A stretch of DNA of 11,651 bases from a virus (lineage: Duplodnaviria > Heunggongvirae > Uroviricota > Caudoviricetes). Each line of letters opens with the position of its first letter. The first letter of the stretch is position 1. The translations under genes were made by a program, and so were the position numbers. The stretch lies in the IMG/VR virus record IMGVR_UViG_2657245006_000001; one strand, 5' to 3'. The notes under the pieces are model-generated. The model was not told the DNA's origin. It searched no databases and saw only the letters and a program-made list of their open reading frames with translations. This document shows, in pieces, positions 1,564 to 11,179 of the stretch.

Positions 1564-1719
1564 TTACTCCTCAGGTTCGTAAGCTGTGAAGACAGCGACC
1601 TCCGTCTGGCCGGTTCGGATTCGTACCTCGCAGAGGTCTTTCCTCGTTACCAGTGCCGTCACTATGACGGTTAAACAGATGACGATCAGGGCGATTAACA
1701 TCGCCTTTTGCTGCTTCAT
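1564..1719 (-). CDS. hok: Hok/Gef-family type I toxin, 51 aa
   Basis: Hand translation gives MKQQKAMLIALIVICLTVIVTALVTRKDLCEVRIRTGQTEVAVFTAYEPEE: one N-terminal transmembrane helix and the conserved Hok periplasmic tail with Cys. AAGGAG lies 9 nt upstream of the ATG at 1719. Not in the ORF track because it is under 60 aa. Recalled as near-identical to HokD (RelF). Confidence 0.85.
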   Translation of the reverse strand: MKQQKAMLIALIVICLTVIVTALVTRKDLCEVRIRTGQTEVAVFTAYEPEE

Positions 1720-1775
1720 AGCCTGCTTCTCCTTGACCTTTCGGTCCGTAAGAGGCTAATCTCTATGTGTCGCAT
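1716..1775 (-). CDS. Mok-like leader ORF (19 aa) whose stop overlaps the hok start codon
   Basis: ATG at 1775..1773 opens MRHIEISLLRTERSRRSRL. Its TGA (1718..1716) overlaps the hok ATG (1719..1717). Resembles the mok/hok coupling arrangement but is much shorter than plasmid R1 mok; Shine-Dalgarno is weak. Confidence 0.3.
   Translation of the reverse strand: MRHIEISLLRTERSRRSRL
1733..1762 (+). promoter_or_regulatory. Candidate Sok-type antisense promoter facing into the hok leader
   Basis: TTGACC (1733-1738), 18-nt spacer, TAATCT (1757-1762) on the plus strand. A transcript starting near 1769 would be antisense to the leader-ORF initiation region (start 1775). A hairpin GCGTC-ttgcag-GACGC (1801-1816) flanked by direct TAATGTTAA repeats lies downstream. 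Confidence 0.3.
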
Positions 1776-1977
1776 AGATATGGCCTCAGATTAATGTTAA
1801 GCGTCTTGCAGGACGCGTAATGTTAACTGGGGCTTTTCTCTATCTGCCTTTTGGTGTTCATGCCTGAGACAGATAGCCTCAAGCACCCGCAGTCATTCTA
1901 CTTAACTAAGATTTCCCCGCAAACCGTTTTTGTCCGGCACAGTAAATATCCAACTAAACCAATGGCGTTCGCTGTAT

Positions 1978-3962: not shown

Positions 3963-5033
3963 TTACCCCCTGAAGCCCGGTGGAATTTCGGTATCCGGTT
4001 CAGAAATATGATTCACACAACGCTGGTTGTTCGTGCCGCTTACCGGGAGCAACCAGGGGTTCTCAAAATTCCGGTCCGGTCCAAAAAACGTCGTCGCTCG
4101 CTGAACAAATTCCGTTCCCGTTTTCCCGGTAGCCGCCAAGTATCTTGCGTAACGCCTCACGCCATCCAGCATGGCCTCTGGTGGCACCCCCTCGCGTAAT
4201 CTGGCCTTCCAGGCACTGAAAGCGGATTTCTTCGGGTTTGCTCCGGCACGCAACGGGTACTCCCGCCAGACCTGTTCGAACACATCCGGATAATCCACTC
4301 GTCCCACAGACAGCCCGGTGTTTTCCGGGACTACCCGATCGGCTTCCCGCTGAATGGCGGAATCGGCTTCAGGCTGCTGCAGTTGGTGTGATTGCTCCGG
4401 CCTTGGGGTCATCACCTGCTGCACAGCGCCCGAATCGGCTTTCAGCGCATACGCTGAATCGGCTTCCGGTGTCGTGCCTGCTGGCTGACCAGGATTGACG
4501 GTCTGAACATCCCCTGCCTGGTTCGTGGCGTTTTTTACGCCATGGACCATAGTGTTTTGATCTTCTTGATCTGTATCTTTATCTGTATCTTTATCTGTCG
4601 TGACTCGTCGTGACATGTGCGTGACATTTCGTGACGCGCCGTGACAATCGCCATTTTGTTCCCGCTTTCTTTCCCTCTCTCGCTGCGCCCTCTTGCGCTC
4701 TGCCGGAGATTTTGCGGTTTGCGAAATATTGCCGTTGTCCTCTTTCAGCACCTGGCGTTTTTCCCATCCAGTGATTAAATCACCATCAAGTACCCGCCCC
4801 TGCATCGTCTGCAAAATTGAATCAATTACCTCTTCTGTCACGTCGAGCGCACTTGCCAAATCTTCTGTCGTGACATCAATGTGACCTCGCGTGACATTTC
4901 GTGACGCGCTCACCAGGAGGTGGATATACACTGCCATCACTGTTGCAATTGGCTGCCCTGACACCCTGGCAATTGTTCGCCACTTAGGGTCATTTGGCAT
5001 GTCATGCCATAATCTGAGCCAGGCGTTAGCCAT
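3963..5033 (-). CDS. Replication initiator (lambda O-like role), 356 aa: winged-helix N-terminal domain, acidic repeat linker, conserved C-terminal domain
   Basis: ATG at 5033..5031 with GAGGT 5 nt upstream (the track ORF begins two codons earlier at a GTG). Position after the cro and CII-like genes matches lambda O. The gene contains two phased GTGAC repeat arrays. The C-terminal motif FEQVWREYPLRAG...FVQRATTFFGPDRNFENPWLLP is recalled as a phage replication-associated family. Confidence 0.65.
   Translation of the reverse strand: MANAWLRLWHDMPNDPKWRTIARVSGQPIATVMAVYIHLLVSASRNVTRGHIDVTTEDLASALDVTEEVIDSILQTMQGRVLDGDLITGWEKRQVLKEDNGNISQTAKSPAERKRAQRERERKREQNGDCHGASRNVTHMSRRVTTDKDTDKDTDQEDQNTMVHGVKNATNQAGDVQTVNPGQPAGTTPEADSAYALKADSGAVQQVMTPRPEQSHQLQQPEADSAIQREADRVVPENTGLSVGRVDYPDVFEQVWREYPLRAGANPKKSAFSAWKARLREGVPPEAMLDGVRRYARYLAATGKTGTEFVQRATTFFGPDRNFENPWLLPVSGTNNQRCVNHISEPDTEIPPGFRG
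4569..4650. repeat. Iteron-like array 1 inside the initiator gene: 12-bp tandem repeat plus five phased GTGAC motifs
   Basis: ATCTGTATCTTT occurs twice in tandem (4569-4592). GTGAC occurs at 4600, 4610, 4621, 4631 and 4641, spaced 10-11 bp. The 19-mer GTGACATTTCGTGACGCGC (4621-4639) is repeated exactly at 4891-4909. A polypyrimidine tract follows at 4651-4710. Confidence 0.55.
4831..4910. repeat. Iteron-like array 2 inside the initiator gene: four phased GTGAC motifs plus one inverted copy
   Basis: GTGAC at 4870, 4881, 4891 and 4901 with 10-11 bp spacing; inverted GTCAC at 4837-4841; TCTTCTGTC repeated at 4831 and 4861; shares the exact 19-mer with array 1. Confidence 0.55.
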
Positions 5034-5104
5034 ACTCACCTCTTCTGATACCGAATCTTTTTACTCACGAGTTGCCGGAAGCGATTCGATATGGCTATTG
5101 TCAG

Positions 5105-5848: not shown

Positions 5849-6487
5849 ATGAGCAAGCAAACTATATCTGAACGCATAACCCAACGTATGCATGCGCTAA
5901 ACCTGAAAGGCAAAGACCTTGTCAATGGCACTGGCGCATCAAAAGGCTCCGTAAGTCAATGGATGAACGGTGGAGGAGCGCCGTCCTCGCGTTACATAAG
6001 TTCACTGGCAAAAATATTGAAAGTAAACGAAAATTGGCTTCTTAATGGAGGAGAGTTAAATACAGGTGATTCGCTTGATCTATCTTTACCGCCGATAAAA
6101 ACGGTTCCGCTACTATCACTTCAGCAGGCAGCAAGCTGGAGTGATTATATGAAAAATTCCTCAATAACCTCTTGTGTGCAGCTTGTCGGAGAAATCCCGG
6201 TCAATACCTTTGCAGTTGTTCTAGAGAGTGACAGTATGTCAACATCTGGTGGGGGAGTTTCCATCCCAAATGGTTCAACAGTTTTTGTTGATCCCGATCG
6301 AACCGTACAACCAGGAAATATTGTCCTTGCCTTACCCAAAGGGACCACAACACCTGTCATTCGTAAACTGGAGATAGAAGGGCCGGATATTCTTTTAGTC
6401 CCCACGAATCCTCGCTACCCTTCAATTATGCTGGATGATCTATCTTGCATATTGGGCGTATGCTTTAAAATTCAACAAGATATTTAA
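5849..6487 (+). CDS. cI: CI-like prophage repressor, 212 aa: N-terminal XRE-type HTH plus C-terminal S24 (LexA-like) autopeptidase domain
   Basis: ATG at 5849, TAA at 6485-6487. N-terminal HTH (ISERITQRMHALNLKGKDLVNGTGASKGSVSQWMNG). C-terminal domain has the Ser nucleophile context ESDSM and a downstream Lys (VIRKLEIEG), as in LexA and lambda CI. Confidence 0.85.
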   Translation: MSKQTISERITQRMHALNLKGKDLVNGTGASKGSVSQWMNGGGAPSSRYISSLAKILKVNENWLLNGGELNTGDSLDLSLPPIKTVPLLSLQQAASWSDYMKNSSITSCVQLVGEIPVNTFAVVLESDSMSTSGGGVSIPNGSTVFVDPDRTVQPGNIVLALPKGTTTPVIRKLEIEGPDILLVPTNPRYPSIMLDDLSCILGVCFKIQQDI

Positions 6488-7313: not shown

Positions 7314-7668
7314 TAGCTAACCAACGAAGCTAAGGTTGGTAATTAAGGAGTTCTCCACGGGTGAGGTGGAGTGCGTGCGCCGGACACGGGTGAGCATCCG
7401 GCACTGACAGTTTACTGAAAGGATATTTCCCTGAAAAGTCAGACCATAACGCGAAAGCGCACGGCGAGGTAGCTGGTTCATAGATAGCCTGTCGTTAAAT
7501 TTTCGTCGACCGTGCGCTTCCGGTTGTGGCAACCCGCGAAATGGTGCGGCGGTAAGTATGGCGGGGTTATTTCTTCCCCGTTGAGGACACCGGGTTGTCA
7601 GGTTGACCATACGCTTAAGTGACAACCCCGCTGCAACGCCCTCTGTTATCAATTTTCTGGTGACGTTT
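7314..7668 (+). other. GC-rich structured non-coding block with no ORF (candidate structured RNA, regulatory element or gene remnant)
   Basis: All three plus frames are full of stops; the only minus ORF (7317..7652) starts at a non-ATG codon and is Arg-rich. Perfect stems: 7455-7464 with 7510-7519 (10 bp), 7592-7600 with 7620-7628 (9 bp), 7379-7384 with 7397-7402, 7320-7325 with 7335-7340. CACGGGTGAG repeated at 7356 and 7385. A sampled line hand-counts to about 60% GC. Confidence 0.3.
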
Positions 7669-7711
7669 GGCGGTATCAGTTTTACTCCGTGACTGCTCTG
7701 CCGCCCTTTTT
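7669..7711 (+). terminator. Candidate intrinsic terminator at the end of the structured block
   Basis: GGCGG (7669-7673) pairs with CCGCC (7701-7705); an imperfect inner stem extends the hairpin; T-run at 7707-7711 follows. A U-tract exists only for the plus strand. Confidence 0.4.
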
Positions 7712-7880
7712 AAAGTGAATTTTGTGATGTGGTGAATGCGGCTGAGCGCACGCGGAACAGTTAAAACCAAAAACAGTGTTATGGGTGGATTCTCTGTATC
7801 CGGCGTTAATTGTTAACTGGTTAACGTCACCTGGAGGCACCAGGCACTGCATCACAAAATTCATTGTTGAGGACGCGATA

Positions 7881-8069
7881 ATGAAAACGTTATTACCAAA
7901 CGTTAATACGTCTGAAGGTTGTTTTGAAATTGGTGTCACTATCAGTAACCCAGTATTTACTGAAGATGCCATTAACAAGAGAAAACAAGAACGGGAGCTA
8001 TTAAATAAAATATGCATTGTTTCAATGCTGGCTCGTTTACGTCTGATGCCAAAAGGATGTGCACAATGA
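7881..8069 (+). CDS. Small hypothetical protein, 62 aa
   Basis: ATG at 7881 with GAGGA 7 nt upstream; its stop overlaps the next ATG (ATGA at 8066-8069). Product MKTLLPNVNTSEGCFEIGVTISNPVFTEDAINKRKQERELLNKICIVSMLARLRLMPKGCAQ. Confidence 0.5.
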   Translation: MKTLLPNVNTSEGCFEIGVTISNPVFTEDAINKRKQERELLNKICIVSMLARLRLMPKGCAQ

Positions 8070-8257
8070 ATTCAGCATTTGTGCTTGTTCTGACAGTTTT
8101 TCTTGTTTCCGGAGAGCCAGTTGATATTGCAGTCAGTGTTCACAGGACAATGCAGGAGTGTATGACTGCAGCAACCGAACAGAAAATTCCCGGTAACTGT
8201 TACCCGGTCGATAAAGTTATTCACCAGGATAATATCGAAATCCCGGCAGGTCTTTAA
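8066..8257 (+). CDS. Small protein, 63 aa, with N-terminal signal peptide or membrane anchor
   Basis: ATG at 8066, coupled to the upstream gene. Product MNSAFVLVLTVFLVSGEPVDIAVSVHRTMQECMTAATEQKIPGNCYPVDKVIHQDNIEIPAGL; hydrophobic N-terminus, three Cys in the soluble part. Confidence 0.5.
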   Translation: MNSAFVLVLTVFLVSGEPVDIAVSVHRTMQECMTAATEQKIPGNCYPVDKVIHQDNIEIPAGL

Positions 8258-8349
8258 AACAGTTCCGTAATAAATATCCGGTTTCATTCTTATATGCCAG
8301 CAATGGCAGGGATTTGTTCATCCTTAAATCTGTCATGAGGTTAAAACAA

Positions 8350-10821
8350 ATGAGTAAAGTCTTTATTTGCGCCGCTATTCCTGACGAACTGGCAACAAGG
8401 GAAGAAGGCGCTGTGGCTGTAGCCACAGCCATTGAAGCTGGCGACGAACGCCGTGCTCGAGCAAAATTTCACTGGCAATTCCTGGAACATTATCCGGCTG
8501 CTCAGGACTGCGCTTATAAATTTATTGTCTGCGAGGATAAACCTGGCATACCCCGCCCTGCCCTCGATTCATGGGATGCTGAATATATGCAGGAAAACCG
8601 CTGGGATGAGGAGTCTGCTTCTTTTGTCCCGGTTGAGACTGAATCCGATCCGATGAACGTCACTTTTGACAAGCTGGCCCCTGAAGTACAGAACGCTGTC
8701 ATGGTTAAGTTCGACACATGTGAAAACATCACCGTTGATATGGTTATTAGCGCACAGGAATTGTTGCAGGAAGACATGGCAACATTCGACGGACATATCG
8801 TTGAAGCGTTGATGAAAATGCCAGAAGTTAACGCCATGTATCCGGAGCTTAAGTTGCACGCCATTGGGTGGGTTAAGCATAAATGTATTCCTGGTGCTAA
8901 ATGGCCCGAAATTCAGGCAGAGATGCGCATCTGGAAAAAACGTCGCGAAGGTGAACGCAAGGAAACCGGAAAATACACGTCTGTTGTTGATCTCGCCCGC
9001 GCCAGAGCCAATCAACAGTACACTGAAAATTCAACAGGAAAAATCAGCCCGGTCATTGCTGCCATTCATCGCGAATACAAGCAGACATGGAAAACACTGG
9101 ATGACGAACTGGCCTACGCTCTCTGGCCTGGTGATGTGGATGCCGGAAACATTGACGGCAGCATCCATCGCTGGGCAAAAAATGAAGTTATCGACAACGA
9201 CCGCGAAGACTGGAAGCGTATCTCGGCATCAATGCGCAAACAGCCTGATGCCCTTCGCTACGACCGCCAAACTATTTTTGGCCTTGTCCGTGAGCGTCCG
9301 ATCGACATTCACAAAGATCCCGTAGCACTGAACAAATATATCTGCGAATACCTGACGACAAAGGGCGTGTTTGAGAATGAAGAAACAGACCTGGGCACTG
9401 TTGATGTTCTCCAGTCATCAGAAACACAAACTGATGCAGTGGAAACTGAGGTATCTGATATCCCAAAAAATGAAACCGCGCCGGAAGCTGAACCATCTGT
9501 AGAGCGTGAGGGGCCGTTCTATTTCCTCTTCGCAGATAAGGACGGAGAAAAATACGGTCGCGCAAACAAACTTTCTGGTCTGGATAAGGCACTGGCTGCT
9601 GGCGCCACTGAAATCACAAAAGAAGAATATTTTGCCCGAAAAAATGGCACATACACGGGCTTACCGCAAAATGTAGATACCGCTGAAGATTCAGAACAAC
9701 CAGAGCCGATAAAAGTTACCGCTGACGAAGTAAACAAAATTATGCAGGCAGCCAATATCATCCAGCCTGACGCCGATAAGTTGCTTGCTGCATCACGTGG
9801 TGAATTTGTTGAAGGGATTAGTGACCCGAATGATCCGAAATGGGTTAAGGGGATCCAGACCCGCGATTCTGTGAACCAGAACCAGCATGAATCGGAACGG
9901 AACTACCAAAAAGCGGAACAAAACAGCCCAAATGCGTTACAAAACGAGCCAGAAACGAAACAGCCTGAATCAGTGGCGCAACAGGAAGTGGAAAAAGTCT
10001 GCACCGCCTGCGGTCAGACCGGCGGCGGCAACTGCCCTGATTGTGGCGCGGTAATGGGCGACGCAACATACCAGGAAACATTCGATGAAGAGTATCAGAT
10101 TGAAGTTCAGGAAGATGATCCGGAGGAAATGGAAGGCGCTGAACATCCACACAAGGAGAACACTGGCGGCAATCAGCATCACGATAGCGATAATGAAACT
10201 GGCGAGACGGCAGATCACTCAATTAAGGTGAACGGTCATCAAGAAATCACATCCACCAGCAGGACGTGTGACCATCTAATGATCGACCTTGAAACCATGG
10301 GAAAAAATCCTGATGCCCCGATCATCTCAATAGGTGCAATATTTTTCGATCCGCAAACCGGAGATATGGGACCGGAATTTAGTAAGACTATCGATCTGGA
10401 AACTGCTGGCGGAGTCATTGATCGGGACACCATTAAATGGTGGCTTAAGCAATCACGCGAAGCGCAATCTGCCATTATGACCGATGAAATCCCGTTAGAT
10501 GATGCACTGTTACAATTGTGGGAATTTATCGACGAAAACTCCGGTGAATTTTTTGTTCAGGTCTGGGGAAATGGAGCCAACTTCGACAACACGATTTTGC
10601 GCCGTTCATACGAACGGCAGGGGATCCCCTGCCCGTGGCGTTACTACAACGATCGCGATGTACGCACAATCGTTGAGCTGGGGAAAGCCATAGACTTCGA
10701 TGCCAGAACGGCTATTCCATTCGAAGGTGAGCGCCATAATGCACTTGATGACGCCCGTTACCAGGCAAAATACGTTTCAGTTATCTGGCAAAAACTGATC
10801 CCGAGTCAGGCTGATTCTTAA
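8350..10821 (+). CDS. Large early-left protein, about 823 aa: long N-terminal region of unknown function, acidic linker, C4 zinc ribbon, C-terminal DEDDh 3'-5' exonuclease domain
   Basis: Preferred ATG at 8350 with GAGG upstream (the track ORF starts at a TTG at 8314); TAA at 10819-10821. C-terminal roughly 190 aa (from about 10264) carries DEDDh motifs: MIDLET, WGNGANFD, HNALDDA. Zinc ribbon CTACGQTGGGNCPDCG near 10000-10046. Possibly related to proteins annotated as exodeoxyribonuclease VIII in prophages (recalled, unverified). Confidence 0.8.
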   Translation: MSKVFICAAIPDELATREEGAVAVATAIEAGDERRARAKFHWQFLEHYPAAQDCAYKFIVCEDKPGIPRPALDSWDAEYMQENRWDEESASFVPVETESDPMNVTFDKLAPEVQNAVMVKFDTCENITVDMVISAQELLQEDMATFDGHIVEALMKMPEVNAMYPELKLHAIGWVKHKCIPGAKWPEIQAEMRIWKKRREGERKETGKYTSVVDLARARANQQYTENSTGKISPVIAAIHREYKQTWKTLDDELAYALWPGDVDAGNIDGSIHRWAKNEVIDNDREDWKRISASMRKQPDALRYDRQTIFGLVRERPIDIHKDPVALNKYICEYLTTKGVFENEETDLGTVDVLQSSETQTDAVETEVSDIPKNETAPEAEPSVEREGPFYFLFADKDGEKYGRANKLSGLDKALAAGATEITKEEYFARKNGTYTGLPQNVDTAEDSEQPEPIKVTADEVNKIMQAANIIQPDADKLLAASRGEFVEGISDPNDPKWVKGIQTRDSVNQNQHESERNYQKAEQNSPNALQNEPETKQPESVAQQEVEKVCTACGQTGGGNCPDCGAVMGDATYQETFDEEYQIEVQEDDPEEMEGAEHPHKENTGGNQHHDSDNETGETADHSIKVNGHQEITSTSRTCDHLMIDLETMGKNPDAPIISIGAIFFDPQTGDMGPEFSKTIDLETAGGVIDRDTIKWWLKQSREAQSAIMTDEIPLDDALLQLWEFIDENSGEFFVQVWGNGANFDNTILRRSYERQGIPCPWRYYNDRDVRTIVELGKAIDFDARTAIPFEGERHNALDDARYQAKYVSVIWQKLIPSQADS

Positions 10822-10893: not shown

Positions 10894-11145
10894 ATGAGCG
10901 AAGTAATCATGATTGTCTCTCCCGGCAAATGGGTATCCGAAGAGCAGTTAATTGCGCTGAAAGGAATAAAAAAAGGTACGTTAAAAAAGGCCCGGGAAAA
11001 ATCGTTTATGGAAGGAAGGGAATATAAGCATGTCGCTCATGACGGTATGCCATGGGATAACAGTCCATGCTTTTACAACCTGGAAGAAATTGATCGCTGG
11101 ATTGAGCGCCAGGCATCAGCAAGACCAAGACGTCATCTTACTTGA
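10894..11145 (+). CDS. xis: Excisionase (lambda Xis-like), 83 aa
   Basis: ATG at 10894, TGA at 11143-11145, immediately upstream of the integrase. Contains GREY in ...KKAREKSFMEGREYKHVAHDG..., recalled as resembling the lambda Xis motif ...VKDGREYLFHESA.... Shine-Dalgarno is weak. Confidence 0.65.
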   Translation: MSEVIMIVSPGKWVSEEQLIALKGIKKGTLKKAREKSFMEGREYKHVAHDGMPWDNSPCFYNLEEIDRWIERQASARPRRHLT

Positions 11146-11179
11146 CTAAAAGCCACACTAACTAATGAGAGAAATTGAA

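Follow-up and report, generated by a model that had tools for sequence, protein, structure and literature searches.

A RecE-like N-terminal region joined to a DEDDh exonuclease domain

The 11,651-nucleotide (nt) stretch of DNA analysed here (IMG/VR virus record IMGVR_UViG_2657245006_000001, Caudoviricetes), hereafter called the window, carries on its plus strand an 823-codon gene (8350..10821) that raises a simple question: what is a large protein ending in a 3'-5' exonuclease doing at the end of an early-left operon that holds no annealing protein? A first-pass annotation, made from the sequence alone, had described an N-terminal part of about 630 amino acids (aa) with no recognisable catalytic motif, followed by a zinc ribbon and a DEDDh exonuclease domain. 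We found that the protein is a paralogue of RecE, the exonuclease VIII of the Rac prophage of Escherichia coli K-12, with an exchanged nuclease module, because its N-terminal region, zinc ribbon included, is homologous to the N-terminal two-thirds of RecE. At the boundary marked by RecE residue 588, the PD-(D/E)XK 5'-3' exonuclease, along with recT, has been exchanged for a DEDDh exonuclease of the DexA type.

The DEDDh domain, DexA/Rv2179c-like, occupies aa 642-813 (10273..10788, + strand) and matched Pfam PF16473 over profile positions 2-177 of 177 (E 1.1e-66; 224.3 bits against a gathering score of 27). The motifs that had been read from the sequence were present as written, within LMIDLETMG (aa 643-651), GNGANFDNT (aa 740-748) and RHNALDDARY (aa 795-804). 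The sole solved relative found by sequence was a 227-aa exonuclease, T4 DexA (PDB 8KEL/8KEN; E 5e-6, about 28% identity), which is a DNA 3'-5' exonuclease (PMC12153337). In a four-way alignment, D646, E648, D746, H796 and D801 corresponded to the catalytic residues D7, E9, D119, H186 and D191 of DexA. The domain looks catalytically competent because all five of these residues align, and the reservation that it might be dead was not borne out. DexA, however, is a stand-alone protein of a virulent phage and has extra loops, whereas the window domain ends a 640-aa scaffold. The PD-(D/E)XK domain of RecE (588/606-866) had no counterpart, since BLASTP found no similarity to RecE 595-866; the earlier claim that this is not the nuclease of RecE or lambda Exo therefore holds.

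By alignment, the first ~625 aa are homologous, in the same order and along their whole length, to the non-catalytic residues 1-591 of RecE. BLASTP against K-12 RecE aligned aa 262-625 with RecE 278-591 (E 7e-62), with an identity of roughly 85% over about aa 474-625, zinc ribbon and acidic linker included. Residues 1-260 had no BLAST match to RecE; an hhalign comparison of the two N-terminal families aligned aa 14-260 with RecE 11-274 over 231 columns (probability 98.7%, E 2.5e-16). All components of the non-catalytic N-terminal and middle region of RecE (PF06630 domain, middle domain, motif and zinc ribbon) could be recognised in this way, while the PF06630 profile itself did not match the window protein. 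At the DNA level, similarity to recE covered window positions 9774-10216 and ended at RecE codon 588 (window aa 623), where the smallest active fragment of the nuclease, known as 'E588' (PMC11257833), begins. The NCBIfam RecE equivalog NF007259 scored 281 bits against a cutoff of 1269, with aa 246-625 only matching model positions 271-602 of 877, and full-length membership was not reached.

The first-pass view that the N-terminal part lacks a catalytic motif held: we detected none, and found no significant fold match among solved structures and no match in our local Pfam copy. It is not an orphan region, however, given its homology to RecE 1-591, and it bears the Pfam domains YdfE_N (PF27430) and YdfE_C (PF27432), according to precomputed matches of relatives P0001-P0007, which are 100% identical to it over aa 1-470. 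A 2023 review (PMC11611040) still calls the corresponding RecE domain 'of unknown function', except that it enhances linear-linear recombination.

This relationship also accounts for a common annotation error. Existing labels for the gene include 'exonuclease', '3'-5' exonuclease', '3'-5' exoribonuclease' and 'exodeoxyribonuclease VIII', the last of which is wrongly applied to genes of this type. Pfam PF06630, named 'Exonuc_VIII', covers only the non-catalytic N-terminus of RecE, and DEDDh proteins (phage records H2, H3 and H18-H21) have been mis-annotated as exodeoxyribonuclease VIII because of this name and of partial matches to NF007259. Recognising that the name was assigned via a non-catalytic region corrects a widespread mis-annotation.

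Domain organisation and predicted structure

The N-terminal 470 aa were modelled with AlphaFold2 using 40 diverse relatives (mean predicted local distance difference test score, pLDDT, of 85). A full-length model had a mean pLDDT of 65; in it the DEDDh domain folds, and a conserved motif (motif M, below), the zinc ribbon and the acidic linker were of low confidence.

From the N-terminus, the protein starts with a domain pair (8350..9027, + strand; pLDDT mostly >90) made of an alpha/beta domain (aa 1-100) and a helical domain (aa 105-226), which corresponds to YdfE_N and is, by hhalign, a remote homologue of RecE aa 11-274. A second helical domain follows (aa 245-340; 9082..9369, +), which is probably YdfE_C and is homologous to RecE aa 278-351 by BLASTP. 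Next come an acidic linker predicted to be disordered (aa 341-387; 9370..9510, +; net charge -13, pLDDT <50) and a small predicted beta-beta-alpha-beta-alpha domain, module N3 (aa 388-432; 9511..9645, +), which was found in relatives with the same type of N-terminus and had no BLASTP match in RecE.

Motif M (aa 474-506, DADKLLAASRGEFVEGISDPNDPKWVKGIQTRD; 9769..9867, +) was the most conserved element of the family, with the consensus LAAxRGE[FY]VEGISDPxDxKW. Its core GISDPxDxKW was invariant in 18 relatives that span architectures with DEDDh, PD-(D/E)XK and Rad52-like C-termini, and the window protein and RecE share the form GISDPNDPKW. Motif M is probably a docking motif because it is predicted to be unstructured, and a short invariant motif of this kind is a likely interaction site.

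The zinc ribbon noted earlier was confirmed as a Cys4 knuckle pair, C551-x2-C554-x7-C562-x2-C565 (10000..10044, +), which is common to RecE (C522-C536 region) and is placed 80 residues N-terminal of the exonuclease domain. It is followed by a second acidic, disordered linker of 69 residues (aa 569-637; 10054..10260, +; net charge -18), inside which the recE DNA homology ends at nt 10216. The whole protein is strongly acidic, with an isoelectric point (pI) of 4.6 and a net charge of -68.

RecE and the 823-aa protein thus have in common their N-terminal domains, GISDPNDPKW, Cys4 ribbon and acidic linker, as well as a gene position at the end of the early-left operon. They differ in their nucleases, a PD-(D/E)XK 5'-3' exonuclease of double-stranded DNA (588-866) in RecE versus a DEDDh 3'-5' exonuclease here, and in the absence of recT, ralR and rcbA downstream of the window gene.

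No annealase in the window

Apart from the 823-aa gene, all plus-strand open reading frames (ORFs) between the repressor gene (5849-6487) and the excisionase gene (10894-11145) encode at most 97 aa, and each was assigned to a named small-protein family. Pfam and PHROG family searches found no annealase between these two genes, as the first-pass annotation had claimed for RecT-, Bet- and Erf-like proteins, and none hidden among the small ORFs. ORFs overlapping the large gene, in other frames or on the opposite strand, had no family match, and none of the early-right genes belonged to a family of single-strand annealing proteins (SSAPs). The excisionase gene lies 72 nt downstream and is followed by the integrase gene, and space for recT is therefore lacking. 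The complete genome of phage PhiR42_1, which has a 99% identical gene, contains no annotated RecT, Bet, Erf, Sak or NinB.

In RecE-RecT and in other SynExo systems, an annealase gene (RecT, Bet, Erf or Rad52-like) adjoins the exonuclease gene; no such neighbour was present here. The window gene resembles these two-component phage recombinases ('SynExo'/EATR), lambda Exo-Bet among them, in its genomic slot and operon timing and, for RecE-RecT, in its scaffold, but it has the opposite predicted nuclease polarity and lacks the exonuclease-annealase pair.

Exchange of C-terminal effectors within the family

An exhaustive HMMER search of 1.84 billion representatives returned only 246 relatives of aa 1-640. 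Module mapping with BLASTP revealed a combinatorial family with two kinds of N-terminus (YdfE-type and RecE-type) and several kinds of C-terminus: DEDDh, RecE-type PD-(D/E)XK, DUF3799-type PD-(D/E)XK and others without a Pfam match. All four combinations of N-terminus and C-terminus occur, and natural chimeras between RecE and the window gene exist. One of them (P0128, locus L004) joins RecE aa 1-277 (100% identity) to the present DEDDh domain (98%) in a Rac-type prophage (sieB, kilR, ydaE) with xis-int directly after it, and the converse (P0131) has a YdfE-type N-terminus and a PD-(D/E)XK C-terminus, followed by an overlapping RecT gene.

Among the 101 related loci analysed, recT was located immediately downstream of the gene in all loci with a PD-(D/E)XK C-terminus (21/21) and was found in none of the loci with a DEDDh C-terminus (0/72). 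This rule held in Escherichia, Citrobacter, Enterobacter and Kluyvera, and the DEDDh variant was consistently without an annealase. In six diverged DEDDh contexts, only the repressor and xis/int were conserved as neighbours. We found no paper describing either the exchange between the RecE scaffold and the DEDDh domain or the strict link between recT and PD-(D/E)XK.

A third class was represented by 13 proteins in which another domain replaces the nuclease (P0129, P0135, P0136, P0154, P0169, P0184, P0189, P0196, P0214, P0234, P0238, P0257 and P0261). The best Pfam match of this domain was Rad52_Rad22, below threshold (E 0.0012-0.023), in 5 of 6 diverged members and always to the C-terminal part of the model. 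The domain carries the Rad52 signature KKSLTDAxKKALSxLGFSADV, and hhalign gave a weak match of its signature segments to human RAD52 residues 48-161 (E 0.046); a HMMER search of the PDB found nothing. One of the genes (P0129, L111:5001-7337) is flanked by Gam-like and Mu-Gam-like/Gp157 genes. These observations are suggestive of a scaffold able to carry a fused annealase, and the probable Rad52-like fusions would tie the scaffold to recombination modules in general. The PHROGs label 'exonuclease' for these proteins is probably wrong.

Two further proteins (P0126, L006:5001-7109, and P0133) shared, instead of a nuclease, a C-terminal tail of ~45 aa (...Q(Q/R)LTIAA(L/I)xGLCANPA...), in which we saw by eye no resemblance to the small Rac proteins RcbA, RalR, RacC, YdaE and KilR. 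This tail may be another effector or a docking element.

Identity, distribution and selection

The ORF is uninterrupted, from an ATG at 8350 to a stop codon at 10819-10821, with a GAGG ~10 nt 5' of the ATG; a start at the TTG at 8314 would lengthen the protein to 835 aa. Over its first 767 nt the gene was 100% identical to ydfE, a pseudogene of K-12, as far as the IS2 insertion in the latter, and the protein matched PHROG 2082 end to end. By this identity, the 823-aa gene is the complete, uninterrupted form of ydfE of the K-12 Qin prophage. The existence of the family is not new, as it is already catalogued in PHROG 2082, in Pfam (YdfE_N/YdfE_C and PF16473) and under PGAP names; our literature searches found no published functional study of an Rv2179c-like/PF16473 gene or of ydfE.

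Of 5426 complete E. coli genomes, 3537 contained at least 80% of the gene; matching places per genome numbered two in the median and ten at most. Copies 99% identical to it were found in phages HannyBb, PhiR42_1 and Tritos. The recurrence of the same ORF in these genomes and phages disposes of the earlier caution that the protein might be a fusion artefact. A motif-based search for the locus in 185,579 species genomes yielded 20 loci, all in Enterobacteriaceae or gut metagenome-assembled genomes, and the same search of IMG/VR yielded at least 586 contigs. The RecE N-terminal region is therewith a conserved, selected module that about two-thirds of complete E. coli genomes carry in a form lacking both the RecE nuclease and RecT. 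Since it is found apart from RecET, its function is open to separate genetic study.

Compared with six alleles, the ratio of nonsynonymous to synonymous substitution rates (dN/dS) was 0.07-0.14 over aa 1-260, 0.15-0.20 over aa 261-350 and 0.23-0.28 overall. Synonymous divergence between alleles was ~0.2 over aa 1-350, ~0.6 in most alleles over aa 351-454 (window 9400-9710) and 0.01-0.10 in the DEDDh domain. Such uneven values point to recombination between alleles, and the gene looks like a composite of segments that differ in history. Judged from these substitution patterns, the scaffold is under purifying selection, and the gene is functional and mosaic rather than a relic.

Possible functions

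The reading that we prefer, and as a whole hold with modest confidence, is that the gene encodes a 3'-5' DNA exonuclease that is tethered to a scaffold, works independently of an annealase and is produced once the prophage is derepressed; we infer its substrate and role. Once the cI-type repressor is inactivated, the protein would be made together with DicF, DicB and YdfD. The scaffold would place the exonuclease on its target, probably via a partner that binds the conserved motif, and the DEDDh domain would then trim DNA 3' ends without a dedicated annealase. The role would be end processing in phage recombination or replication, or the degradation of host or competitor DNA. Candidate processes are end processing, annealase-free recombination by 3'-5' resection, the scavenging of host DNA as for DexA, and the exclusion of phages with modified DNA as claimed for EcD, an E. 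coli-borne member of the DexA family.

Several points weigh against this reading. The assignment of a DNA substrate comes from sequence, and PF16473 is named after an exoribonuclease, so that an RNA substrate is possible. A 3'-5' exonuclease destroys the 3' tails used by RecA and annealases, and a pro-recombination role is therefore not obvious. The scaffold is acidic and has no fold relative, and we infer 'targeting' solely from conservation and modularity. Moreover, the 72 and 21 loci behind the recT rule include many near-identical E. coli copies, so that independent lineages are far fewer, and recT alone was searched for systematically, the Pfam check for other annealase families having covered the window and a small number of loci.

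A wider version of the same idea is tentative. Here, the RecE/YdfE N-terminal region would serve as a portable 'hub' for recombination, docking to a factor of the host or phage by way of GISDPNDPKW, and its effectors could be swapped: a 3'-5' exonuclease, a Rad52-like annealase fused to it, or a 5'-3' exonuclease working with RecT. The DEDDh form, which is the most common one in E. coli, might then represent a previously unrecognised annealase-free 3'-5'-resection pathway for recombination or for action against hosts or competitors.

The role of the nuclease could instead be defensive. Most E. coli genomes retain the gene, many of them with more than one copy, and its neighbour dicB has been reported to have phage-exclusion effects. 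A prophage defence or superinfection-exclusion nuclease of the HREX type would degrade the 5-hydroxymethylcytosine (5hmC) DNA of T-even phages and spare host DNA. The C-terminal domain does belong to the DexA family, a plasmid-borne E. coli DexA homologue, EcD, is reported to protect against T4, and such homologues are most frequent in Escherichia (PMC12153337). We nevertheless consider this unlikely. The residues with which DexA is reported to read 5hmC were not conserved, W152 being replaced by Y766 and D169 by A780 in an alignment at 26-28% identity that leaves the D169 position uncertain, and D90, the residue for tetramerisation, was kept as D718; HREX/EcD would be expected to show the reverse, with W152 and D169 present and D90 lost. 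EcD is short, stand-alone and different in sequence, beginning at MIDxET, whereas the window gene is an operon-embedded prophage early gene whose operon is expected to be repressed in the lysogen. No PADLOC model matched the protein, and elsewhere the shared scaffold bears recombination effectors.

We read the ends of EcD from its published primers, with the reading frame of the reverse primer guessed, as MIDTET... and ...TIPETYD. IMG/VR did not contain the reverse primer, and none of the fetched loci contained the forward one; the diverged E. coli homologue H154 was considered as EcD and rejected as a different stand-alone homologue.

In that study (PMC12153337; NAR 2025), 'bacterial DexA homologues', which are commonest in Escherichia and Citrobacter, are regarded as genes for host defence, with no mention of prophages. 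The DexA-like domains seen here were either part of a prophage early gene or encoded by stand-alone genes in the ea region of prophages (L003, L112), and it is likely that at least some 'bacterial DexA homologues' are phage-borne. Stand-alone PF16473 exonucleases (phage 1720a-02 coding sequence AGR48394.1; E. coli WP_001061343.1) were ~60% identical to the window domain and had the same catalytic motifs, but they are ~190 aa long, lack the scaffold and lie among ea/yfdQ-yfdR-type genes rather than in the recombination slot.

A dedicated recombination enzyme that needs no annealase is, in our estimation, also of low probability. XthA-dependent in vivo cloning provides an example of recombination driven by a 3'-5' exonuclease in E. 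coli. By analogy, 3'-5' resection of two ends would expose 5' tails complementary to each other, which would anneal by themselves or with aid from the host, and the RecE-type scaffold would hold the ends together. The gene does occupy the recE-recT or exo-bet slot at the end of the early-left operon, and relatives have nuclease or annealase modules attached to this scaffold. It also has the N-terminal region in common with RecE, and this region reportedly enhances linear-linear recombination (Fu 2012, in the citation given by PMC11611040). This account is entirely inferential, however; no annealing or end-binding activity is predicted, and the acidic scaffold has no fold similarity to Ku/Gam end-binding proteins or to SSAPs.

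Less probable again is an exoribonuclease acting on phage or host RNA, for example in the turnover of early transcripts or in the degradation of nucleotide or oligonucleotide signals. The family name of PF16473, taken from the Mycobacterium tuberculosis exoribonuclease Rv2179c, the PGAP label '3'-5' exoribonuclease' on many copies and the presence of the processed small RNA DicF in the operon would all fit this idea, but the sole solved structure found by sequence is a DNA exonuclease, T4 DexA, and the domain takes the place of a DNA exonuclease, on a scaffold that is otherwise linked with modules for DNA recombination. Finally, a decaying prophage remnant or a fusion artefact without current function is very improbable, for although the K-12 and BL21 copies are cut by IS2 or a deletion and truncated forms are present among the IMG/VR loci, dN/dS is ~0.25 overall and ~0.1 in the N-terminal domain, full-length copies occur in 3537 genomes and in phages that form plaques or can be induced, and the catalytic residues are intact.

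If the DEDDh variant does support recombination or defence, it would offer a new tool or a new prophage-host interaction; otherwise it is an ordinary accessory nuclease. It is not a new class of system, and it makes the question of RecE N-terminal function directly approachable.

Genomic setting

The window represents the immunity and early region of a lambdoid prophage of the Qin type, and its gene order agrees with that of K-12 Qin. Just 5' of the early-left operon, a plus-strand gene (5849..6487) encodes a cI/LexA-type repressor of 212 aa with helix-turn-helix (HTH) and S24 peptidase domains (Pfam). It is followed on the same strand by a YdfA-like DUF1391 gene, YdfB/YdfC-like ORFs, DicF, dicB, ydfD (DUF1482), the 823-aa gene, xis and the integrase gene. 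The small RNA DicF (7655..7706, +; Rfam RF00039, 76.7 bits) lies upstream of the 823-aa gene in the same operon, and dicB (~7881-8069) and ydfD (~8066-8257), identified by family matches, stand directly 5' of it (7881..8257, +) in the K-12 Qin arrangement. The 823-aa gene is the last of the early-left operon before the excisionase gene (DUF1233, by family matches; 10894..11145, +) and the integrase ORF, which starts at 11165 and extends past the end of the window. The early-right genes, on the minus strand, include a P22-Cro-like gene, a YdaT-like gene, DUF977, DUF968/HNH, and hok with sok.

The repressor differs from that of K-12 Qin, in which the 135-aa, HTH-only DicA is encoded at the same site instead of the 212-aa, self-cleaving LexA/cI type. 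As it combines an HTH with an S24 peptidase, this version of the dicB operon should be SOS-inducible.

Two ORFs of 111 aa (7317-7652 and 7682-8017, both on the minus strand) run antisense to dicF-dicB and had no Pfam or PHROG match. Hypothetical proteins are annotated at about the equivalent positions of both in the PhiR42_1 record; these ORFs, which overlie the DicF/dicB transcript, are probably spurious calls. A minus-strand ORF of 358 aa (3963-5039), placed where the replication initiator (lambda O) would be, had no Pfam match, and L004 and L006 have at this position an ORF of similar size, likewise without a Pfam match. In an Enterobacteriaceae prophage (L025:3339-4741), a DUF6932 ORF of 157 aa and a 310-aa ORF without a family match are inserted in the early-left operon 5' of the DEDDh scaffold gene, and this pair could be accessory or defence cargo. 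The toxin of the hok/gef family in the window is a minus-strand ORF of 51 aa (1564-1719; Pfam E 1e-23), next to a full-length match to the sok antisense RNA (1717-1888, minus strand; Rfam RF01794, 106.7 bits), and this hok/sok module sits in the early-right/nin region, as does hokD in K-12 Qin.

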